Below are positions 58,421 to 60,281 of a stretch of 64,000 nt of DNA, in pieces. The DNA is from an uncultured Gemmatimonadales bacterium. GTDB lineage: Bacteria > Gemmatimonadota > Gemmatimonadetes > Gemmatimonadales > GWC2-71-9. Each line of letters begins with the position of its first letter. Position 1 is the stretch's first letter. Position numbers and translations under genes: made by a program. The DNA is taken from assembly GCA_963730185.1 (NCBI GenBank), contig CAVSQW010000009.1, positions 320,001 to 384,000 of the forward strand. The letters run 5' to 3'. The notes beneath the pieces were generated by a model. That model made no database searches. It saw nothing but the letters and a program-made list of their open reading frames with translations, and was not told where the DNA came from.

Positions 58421-59712
58421 CGCCCGGGCGGCGGCGAAAGGGCCACCCCGCCCTTGATGACCCGCTCGATCCGCTCCGCGTTCCGGATGTCGGCCGTCGG
58501 GTCGGCGCCCAGCACCACCAGGTCGGCCAGCTTGCCGCGCTCGATCGTGCCGAGGCTCGCCTCCTGGCCGAGCGCTTTGGCGCCGTCGAGCGTCGCGGCG
58601 GTGATCGCCTGGGCGGGAGTGAAGCCGCAGTGGTCCACCAGGTACTCGAGCTCGGTGAAAAGCGGCGGCAGGCCGTCGGGCCGCATGGTCTCCGGCCCGT
58701 CGGTTCCGGCACTCACCGGGATCCCCAGGTCTCGGGCCTCGACCGTAACCCGGCAGGCCCAGTCGGCGGCCTCGGGCGAGATCCCCTGGACGACCGCCGA
58801 GACGGTGGCGTCCAGGACCGTGCCGCGCGCCTTCATCAGGTCGAGCACTCGCCGGACCGGCTCCCCGTCGGGCGCCACCCGGTCGAACGGACCGACCGGA
58901 CCGAAGTTGGTGTACGGGTCGGTGTGGAACCGGGCCGGCAGGGTCGGCACGCCTTCCCACACCAGGAGCGCGGCGTGCGACACCGCGTCGACCCCCGCCT
59001 CCACGACGTCCGAGGGCCGGACCGGGAAGATGGCCGGGTGGGTCCAGACCCGGAGTCCCTGATCGTGAGCCGCCGTGGTGATCCGCTGCACCAGATCGAG
59101 CGAGAGATCGGAGTAGATCTTGATGGCGGAGACGCCGAGGGCCTTGGCGCCGGCCACGGCGGCGGTGAGGTCGGTGGAATCGGTGACCGCCAGGAACCAC
59201 GGGACCTCACCCGGCGCCTGATCGCCGGTGGATCCGATCGGCCGCTTGTCCACCGCGTAGAAGCTCGGCCCGGCAAAGAAGGCGGAGTAATAAAGCCGGG
59301 CCATCGGGGTGCCGGGATCGCGCGAGCGGGGCGCGACCTGGGCGAAGAGGGCTGCGTCGCCCGCCATGTCCCGTACGGCGGTCACCCCGCCGGCCGCCAG
59401 CTGCCCGAGCCGGGTGACCAGCTGGATCGAGTCGGGCGGAAAGTGCGAGTGGGTGTCGATCAGACCCGGCATGACCCAGCGTCCGGCCAGGTCGAGCCGC
59501 TCCACGCCCGCCGGCGGCCTCTGGTCGCCGGTCGGGCGGACGGCCGCGATCCGGTCGCCTTGAATGGCCACCACCTGATGCTCCCTCGGCGCGGCGCCGG
59601 TGCCGTCGACGACCGTGACGTCCCAGAGCAACAGGTCGGCCGCGGGCGCGGGCCGCTTGGCGCATCCGGCGGCAAGGGCCAGGCCGACCAGGAGCAGGGC
59701 GGAACGGATCAG
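58417..59712 (-). CDS. amidohydrolase family lipoprotein (start uncertain: CTG 59712 or ATG 59769)
   Basis: Lipobox [41 protein letters not shown]. Confidence 0.85.
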
Positions 59713-60281
59713 GTCGGTTCCCGCCCCACGCCGAGGGCGTCGGCGACGCGGTTGATGTAGTTGAACCATGAGGCGATCAACGTGATCTGGAGGATGCCCC
59801 GGTCGTCGAAGCCCACCTGCCGGAGGCGTTGATGGTGCTCGGGTGTGATCTTGGTCGCATCGCGGGTGATCTGGTCGACGTAGTCCAGCATCACCCGGTC
59901 GGGCTCGTCGATCGGCGCGGTGCGATAGTCGGTCCGGATCGCGTCGACCAGCCCGTCGTCCAACGTCACCCGGCGCAGAAACTCTGCGTGGGAGTCGATT
60001 CAATAGAAGCACCGGTTGGCGACGGAGACGACGGTGGTGATCAACTCCTGCTGGCGCCGGGTCAGGGGCAGGTCCGGCGAGGTCAGCGCGCCGAAGGTGG
60101 AGAACGCATGGTGGAGGGCCTCGGGAATCAGGCTATGCGAGGCCACGATGCTGGAGGTCCCGTCGCCAGTGGGATGAACCGGCTGCCGGTAGTCGGCGGG
60201 ATAGAGGGCGGCCTGCCGCTCCACCGCGTCCTTGAGCCGCTGGTCCGCTGCCGAGAGCGGAACCGTTTCGATCCAGGTCAT
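59709..60281 (-). CDS. AhpD/carboxymuconolactone decarboxylase-like peroxidase-related protein with in-frame UGA (probable selenocysteine, CxxU)
   Basis: ORFs 60000-60281 and 59709-59969 are in the same frame. Read-through gives ...[21 protein letters not shown](U)IDSHAEFLR...[28 protein letters not shown], 190 aa, with U at codon 94 (TGA at 60002-60000). Confidence 0.85.
59969..59992 (-). promoter_or_regulatory. bacterial SECIS-like hairpin
   Basis: mRNA after UGA: AUCGACU-CCC-A-CGCAGA-GUU-UCUGCG-CC-GGG. The 6-bp upper stem starts after an 11-nt spacer, and the 3-nt apical loop begins with GU at +18. Confidence 0.75.

Follow-up and report, generated by a model that had tools for sequence, protein, structure and literature searches.

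A predicted AhpD-like selenoprotein gene, annotated as two fragments, in an uncultured Gemmatimonadales bacterium

In a 64,000-nucleotide stretch of DNA from an uncultured Gemmatimonadales bacterium (the window, i.e., the whole stretch that was analysed), two neighbouring open reading frames are best read as one AhpD-like gene of 190 codons. Its in-frame UGA is likely translated as selenocysteine (Sec) by means of a hairpin, and its C91-F-Y-U94 motif likely makes the product a thiol/selenol peroxide or disulfide reductase. We put the probability of this combined reading at about 0.93, and we hold the recoding of codon 94 as Sec, taken by itself, to be very likely. The gene is a member of a selenoprotein family that has been catalogued since 2005; it is real but ordinary, and as a discovery it matters little, since the family has been listed for that long.

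The interrupted reading frame and its relatives

An earlier note on this DNA had proposed that a 93-aa and an 86-aa ORF are one reading frame broken by a single TGA, and this is what the sequence contains. The two ORFs (60281-60000, and the one opening with GTG at 59969) have a common frame, in which codon 94 is the sole in-frame TGA, within the context TGC TTC TAT TGA ATC GAC TCC CAC (N89-R-C91-F-Y93-*-I-D-S-H98; Table 1). As the note had also expected, automatic annotation splits the gene, which is entered in the public protein collection as two proteins of 93 and 86 aa. The present reading corrects that annotation, and many relatives are probably mis-called as well, with Trp at this codon. 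A promoter scan of the window between 57000 and 63900 returned 0 sites. Three terminator-like matches were found against 1.7 expected, and the one at 60024-60010 lies inside the coding sequence.

Table 1. Features of the AhpD-like locus in window coordinates
Feature	Position	Strand	Basis
AhpD-like gene (TIGR01926/COG2128), ATG 60281 to TGA stop 59711-59709	59709..60281	(-)	190 codons + stop; bit scores of the read-through form vs the halves, and an all-helical model matching AhpD-like structures
TGA codon 94, second position of CxxU (C91-F92-Y93-U94)	60000..60002	(-)	TGA in 80/80 loci (best 80 of 552); Cys in 60/62 non-Trp homologues (best 120 of 847)
Cys91 codon, first position of CxxU, likely resolving thiol	60009..60011	(-)	Thr instead in 16/120 homologues (best 120 of 847), Cys94 retained
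Glu79 codon, putative proton-relay residue	60045..60047	(-)	Invariant in alignment A1; 12 residues ahead of Cys91, cf. Glu36/Cys48 of PA0269 (PMC3141380, available text)
His98 codon, putative proton-relay residue, overlaps hairpin base	59988..59990	(-)	His, always CAC, in 80/80 loci (best 80 of 552)
11-nt spacer, UGA to hairpin	59989..59999	(-)	Same register across 80 loci (best 80 of 552)
SECIS-like hairpin CGCAGA-GUU-UCUGCG, within codons 98-103, loop G at +18	59974..59988	(-)	Synonymous freezing; C-G/G-C swap between paralogue clades
GGAGAG, likely ribosome-binding site, 9 nt ahead of ATG	60291..60296	(-)	Read from sequence; function by inference

A genome scan returned 552 relatives, and the best 80 of these, mostly from Acidobacteriota and Gemmatimonadota, were examined; codon 94 is TGA in every one of these closest loci. 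The same holds for 30/30 phylum loci checked, the window's own locus among them, and for 24 of the 25 matches among 251 sampled Acidobacteriota genomes. In the phylum sample of 301 genomes, 112 have a match, and 146 of the 150 matches listed contain a TGA, its position at column 94 being verified for 43 of the 146. Two contigs from four soil runs, one ~94% and one ~82% identical, cover the TGA site and exhibit no difference at 60000-60002 among the 40 of 76 difference rows listed, which we do not take as confirmation of the codon. Across the related loci, the pattern is that of a codon-94 TGA that is under selection.

The earlier note placed the TGA at the second Cys of the AhpD/CMD active-site motif, and the homologues agree, with Cys or TGA at this column. 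Among the best 120 of 847 protein homologues, the motif reads CxxW in 58, CxxC in 44 (two of these rows read by eye), TxxC in 16, CxxS in 1 and CxxL in 1, i.e., Cys occupies column 94 in nearly all homologues without Trp there (Table 1). Intact Cys homologues about 70% identical to the AhpD-like protein exist. The clade offers Sec, Cys and first-Cys-less versions at near-70% identity, with which the contribution of Sec could be examined directly. A FastTree tree with 183 rows places most of the close Cys forms within the TGA clade, which tentatively suggests Sec-to-Cys reversion. The window's gene adjoins a 55-member Cys clade in this tree, with a low support of 0.56, and same-family loci group with named Gemmatimonadota loci, in keeping with a host of that phylum. 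One phylum genome (G136, locus L134) carries a Cys (TGC) form that is sister to a TGA form and keeps 5/7 hairpin pairs; selA was not found in this genome, and the locus looks like a recent Sec-to-Cys reversion.

The hairpin and the selenocysteine machinery

The hairpin described in the earlier note, with its 11-nt spacer and G-first loop, is present as described, and its interpretation as a SECIS element stands on published criteria and on conservation across loci. According to the available text of PMC13188914, bacterial SECIS elements have a loop of 3-9 nt, a stem of 4-16 bp, a G in the first two loop positions, a distance of 16-37 nt from the UGA and a minimum free energy of <= -7.5 kcal/mol. 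Checked by hand against that text, the present hairpin lies within these limits, with a 3-nt loop, a 6-bp stem, G first, 17 nt and -7.6 kcal/mol. The latter energy, computed for a 19-nt stretch that was picked after the hairpin had been seen, corresponds to a z of -4.06, with 0/200 shuffles as good; over stretches of 48 nt and 60 nt, the fold energy is unremarkable (z of -0.58 and +0.56, respectively). Since a loose SECIS geometry fits 25,923 of the 107,489 TGA triplets in the genome (24%), the hairpin alone is weak evidence. The exact geometry, which was defined after the fact, occurs at 74 of these triplets.

Codon usage across loci is more telling. In the 80 closest of the 552 loci, codons 98-103 are CAC (80/80), GCA (79/80), GAG (80/80), TTT (80/80), CTG (80/80) and CGT (78/80). 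The hairpin codons are thus held to one codon at 97-100%, whereas the commonest codon at the 99 other conserved positions accounts for 63% on average and attains 95% at just 1 of them. This synonymous freezing is strong evidence for the predicted hairpin. In addition, paralogues about 38% identical form a clade whose hairpin keeps this register but differs in sequence. When pairing was tested with the window, 16 loci from the set of 80 and 18 from the paralogue clade (35 rows in all), 92.7% of cells were paired and covariation was 0.248, against <=62% and <=0.198 in slid controls. The pair count is flattered, because five more distant TGA loci that fall outside the hairpin register (L144, L145, L146, L149 and L152) were left out of it, and the C-G/G-C swap between the paralogue clades is one clade-level event counted 17 times. 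The window's own copy of the hairpin is without the bottom A-U pair. With its near-invariance in two phyla, the 18-nt SECIS is a clean substrate for SelB-binding work.

That the organism uses selenocysteine, another claim of the earlier note, is supported by its genome (82% complete), in which selA (contig C8) and selB (C2) score over cut-off, the tRNA-Sec gene selC (C10) scores 69 bits against a cut-off of 47, and selD (C13), also over cut-off, carries a TGA and hairpin of its own. A second tRNA-SeC called by ARAGORN at C6:340205-340297 is likely false, as its cloverleaf is poor and it is absent from the Rfam listing.

A heuristic TGA scan of the genome gave at least five other TGA-recoded candidates, i.e., selD, an AhpD-like paralogue and ArsC-family, SelW-family and Prx-like genes. 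The second AhpD-like gene (C15:645860, L140; CRY-TGA-IHHH; TIGR01926 at 122 bits; 37% identical) has the hairpin CGGGGC-GGG-GCUCCG in the same register as that of the window's gene. The ArsC-family candidate (C12:7308, L142; UxxC; NF041106 at 131.6 bits) has the hairpin CGCAAGA-GUU-UCUUGCG, whose AGAGUUUCU apex is common to the AhpD hairpin, the two genes being unrelated. The remaining two are a SelW/Rdx-family CxxU candidate (C12:29276, L143; NF041051 at 103.9 bits) and a Prx-like UxxC candidate (C6:249199, L141), the 5' part of which lies in another frame, owing to an assembly indel or to its being a pseudogene. A crude motif scan of the genome for a formate dehydrogenase Sec site gave nothing credible, which does not imply that the enzyme is absent.

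The distribution of selA follows that of the TGA form, in counts for which kin are not independent and genomes are incomplete. Within the phylum, selA is found in 243/301 genomes (a tally that takes in one unpublished genome, G205), in 107/109 genomes with the TGA form and, conversely, the TGA form in only 2/58 genomes lacking selA. The TGA forms of G230 and G233 (95% and 94% complete) occur in genomes where selA was not found. Among the genomes with a Cys form only, selA is missing in 3/4 (G136, G287 and G377) and present in G315. For Acidobacteriota, all 22 TGA genomes tested have selA, and it was not found in the single Cys-form genome. For 50 of the 80 closest of the 552 loci, the genomes were searched for selA, with convincing selA in 46, weak matches only in 2 and none in 2.

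These observations bear on three other accounts of the locus. If a Cys codon had mutated to TGA or been misread as TGA in sequencing, the locus would be a nonsense pseudogene or an assembly error, and the assembly does seem to hold indel errors elsewhere: the Prx-like gene on C6 is frameshifted, and an EF-Tu-like match beside a tRNA cluster (C15:183150-184027) runs in two frames, which hints at indels. However, the TGA recurs in other genomes throughout the 80 closest loci, the downstream half is conserved and the hairpin codons are frozen; because of this conservation, we regard this account as refuted and assign it hardly any probability. The products of two separate genes, an N-half of 93 aa and a C-half of 86 aa whose start codon would be GTG 59969, might instead assemble into one protein, as the separate public proteins would allow. 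Val105, the residue of this GTG codon, is Val in 72 of the 80 closest of the 552 loci, but the codon is GTG in only 20 of those 72. Furthermore, residues 95-104 between the halves are conserved, the relay His98 included, and the Cys homologues described above are intact, all of which makes a split gene very improbable.

A further possibility is that UGA here specifies Trp (code 4/25) or some other standard residue, as might be supposed from the Trp at column 94 in 58 of the best 120 of 847 protein matches and from a genuine TGG (Trp) version in two metagenome contigs, L102 and L103, the latter otherwise open over residues 1-186. Against this, TGA terminates 1,447 of 2,131 long genes in the genome, the AhpD-like gene included, and Trp would abolish the redox residue. 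The two TGG loci, in which one hairpin pair is broken, are the only stretches returned by a metagenome scan for TGG, TGC or TGT in the CxxU motif, and their motif differs from that of the Trp proteins inspected; in the 183-row tree, the public Trp-at-94 proteins are intermixed with TGA loci. Because of the scan and the tree, the 58 public Trp entries (P0003 and 57 others) probably stem from TGA codons that were translated with code 4. Altogether, we consider a standard residue at codon 94 highly improbable and retain selenocysteine.

Family membership and proposed chemistry

The read-through protein scores 104.1 bits with TIGR01926, above the cut-off of 81.8, which neither half passes alone (23.4 and 54.8 bits). 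It also lies above cut-off for the AhpD core domain TIGR00778 (36.7 against 27.8 bits) and above the gathering threshold of the Pfam CMD domain PF02627 (41.8 against 23 bits), a match that names the fold and not a decarboxylase activity. With the full-length model for AhpD proper, TIGR00777, it reaches 20 bits against a cut-off of 191.95. The protein is therefore classed by these scores as a TIGR01926 "peroxidase-related enzyme" and not as AhpD proper. Of the earlier note's description, an AhpD/CMD-like Sec-dependent oxidoreductase, the family match and the Sec reading hold up, with the qualification that the protein is not AhpD in the strict sense; the predicted activity derives from homology.

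An AlphaFold2 model of the read-through protein, built with 73 sequences, is all-helical (pLDDT 85.5, pTM 0.77). A fold search with this model matched 6k40, 2pfx, 2oyo, 2prr and 3c1l, with E from 4e-9 to 1e-7 and TM from 0.67 to 0.76 (about 0.75 for 6k40, 2pfx and 2prr), and sequence alignments place codon 94 at the second Cys of CxxC in the fold-matched AhpD-like structures. The solved TIGR01926-type proteins (D. radiodurans AhpD 6k40, Silicibacter 2pfx, R. eutropha 2prr and M. loti 3c1l), together with P. aeruginosa PA0269 (2o4d), have in common with the present protein the all-helical fold (TM 0.62-0.76) and a Glu-x12-CxxC-xxx-His relay in which Tyr occupies the third position, whereas they have Cys rather than Sec at the second position and 22-33% identity in fold alignments. 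M. tuberculosis AhpD, a TIGR00777 protein, is alike in the core two-helix motif and the relay spacing, but the present protein fails the full-length model and the fold match is weak (E 0.06-0.12). No AhpC gene was seen among the neighbours scanned.

Two further equivalogs belong to the same superfamily. NF041238 (AhpD_rel_CFYUT) has Sec at the equal motif position (CxxU, by the available text of PMC13188914), but it is a 357-position model with which the protein scores 60.8 against 175 bits, far under the cut-off; for the YciW-related (seleno)proteins of NF053654, the score is likewise far under the cut-off, at 40.8 against 310 bits. The closest known counterpart is the AhpD-like selenoprotein family "AhpD-like 1" (COG2128/TIGR01926, CxxU), with a single Sec, a bacterial SECIS 3' of the UGA and many Cys homologues (available texts of PMC1088965, PMC2398784 and PMC13188914). 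In these texts we see no defining difference from it, except that the 2005 and 2008 sets are from marine metagenomes while the named relatives of the present clade are Acidobacteriota and Gemmatimonadota. The earlier note was thus right that AhpD-like selenoproteins are a known class. As far as the available texts go, AhpD-like CxxU selenoproteins of COG2128 were described with 27 sequences in 2005 (PMC1088965) and 299 in 2008 (PMC2398784); a 2026 review assigns them to TIGR01926 and rates them as high-confidence predictions, not as experimentally verified (PMC13188914), and BSepDB contains the family (PMC13326102). The supplements of the last two papers may already list members of the present clade.

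The proton relay of PA0269, given in the available text of PMC3141380 as Glu36/Cys48/Tyr50/Cys51/His55, maps to E79/C91/Y93/U94/H98, i.e., the arrangement Glu/Cys/His-or-Tyr/Cys/His is found in full; His98 has as its counterparts His55 of PA0269 and His137 of M. tuberculosis AhpD. We propose that SelB with Sec-tRNA would bind the G-first loop at +18 so that Sec is inserted, and that translation would end after 93 residues when selenium is absent. In the completed protein, the Glu79/Tyr93/His98 relay would support a Sec94 selenolate, which may attack a hydroperoxide or the disulfide of a partner; Cys91 would then close a C91-U94 selenenylsulfide, to be reopened by a cellular reductant. This proposed Sec94/Cys91 cycle is drawn from the general chemistry of selenoenzymes.

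The nucleophile is likely at position 94, because Sec sits there and because 16 homologues lose Cys91 and keep Cys94. In the superfamily at large, the nucleophile position varies. According to the available text of a review (PMC6626918), M. tuberculosis AhpD attacks AhpC with its second Cys, which is exposed, while for B. thailandensis AhpD the first Cys is the more important; Sestrin2 retains only the first Cys (available text of PMC4674687). Within the open primary literature, we found no paper that settles which AhpD Cys is peroxidatic. For the present protein, a general peroxide/disulfide reductase role appears probable on homology, with antioxidant peroxide/disulfide reduction as our single best guess for its function.

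Neighbourhood and a possible substrate

In the window, the gene lies between a beta-propeller gene upstream and an amidohydrolase gene downstream. Neither of these, nor the alpha/beta hydrolase of the window, is found beside any of 99 related loci. A LAT-family amino-acid permease, on the other hand, is encoded directly upstream in 31 of the 80 closest of the 552 loci (e.g., L022, L027, L059 and L100), or in 30 of the 72 among them that have at least 500 nt upstream, and it often overlaps the start of the AhpD-like gene by 4 nt. It adjoins 12/24 Acidobacteriota TGA loci, and of the 12 permease orthologues closest to it in the phylum sample, 10 are beside this AhpD-like gene. The best PDB matches of the permease are xCT-type and b0,+AT transporters, cystine transporters included. 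Among 19 wider loci, no further conserved partner was found.

This neighbourhood makes it conceivable that Sec is inserted as proposed but that the enzyme acts on one particular amino-acid-like compound, e.g., cystine or selenocystine, which the permease would supply and the enzyme would reduce; a reductive dehalogenase like Bmp8, a fold-search match at E 1e-3, is the other form that such a specialised role might take. However, all LAT-family structures score alike, and therefore no substrate is indicated; there is no LAT permease in the window, and none was found in the 82%-complete genome at E<=1e-90; and the wider loci add no partner. We consider a specific substrate of either kind rather unlikely. 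Decidedly doubtful, in our judgement, is a two-gene uptake-and-reduce unit of Acidobacteriota and Gemmatimonadota, in which the permease would import an oxidised amino acid containing sulfur or selenium (cystine, selenocystine) for the Sec enzyme to reduce, the window's copy being an orphan after permease loss. If true, such a unit would provide the first substrate for AhpD-like selenoproteins, and the permease link in relatives is in any case a usable lead to one. In a literature search that covered mostly open-access journals, no link between an AhpD-like selenoprotein and an amino acid permease was found. General peroxide/disulfide reduction remains the role we favor.

Several other genes near these loci were recorded. 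Of the 80 closest of the 552 loci, 12 have a gene for a TonB-type outer-membrane barrel in the vicinity. In the window, the amidohydrolase gene (59712-58417, minus strand) encodes a lipoprotein-like leader, and its apparent first codon, CTG, overlaps the TGA stop of the AhpD-like gene. Farther away lie a nitroreductase-family gene (Pfam PF00881; 52271-52966, minus strand), which may resemble iodotyrosine deiodinase, and, 7.5 kb from the AhpD-like gene, a gene for a TPR/FG-GAP/ASPIC-UnbV protein (about 48700-52207, plus strand). A TPR/FG-GAP protein is encoded within 3 kb of the AhpD-like gene in 8 of the 80 closest of the 552 relatives, possibly by chance.
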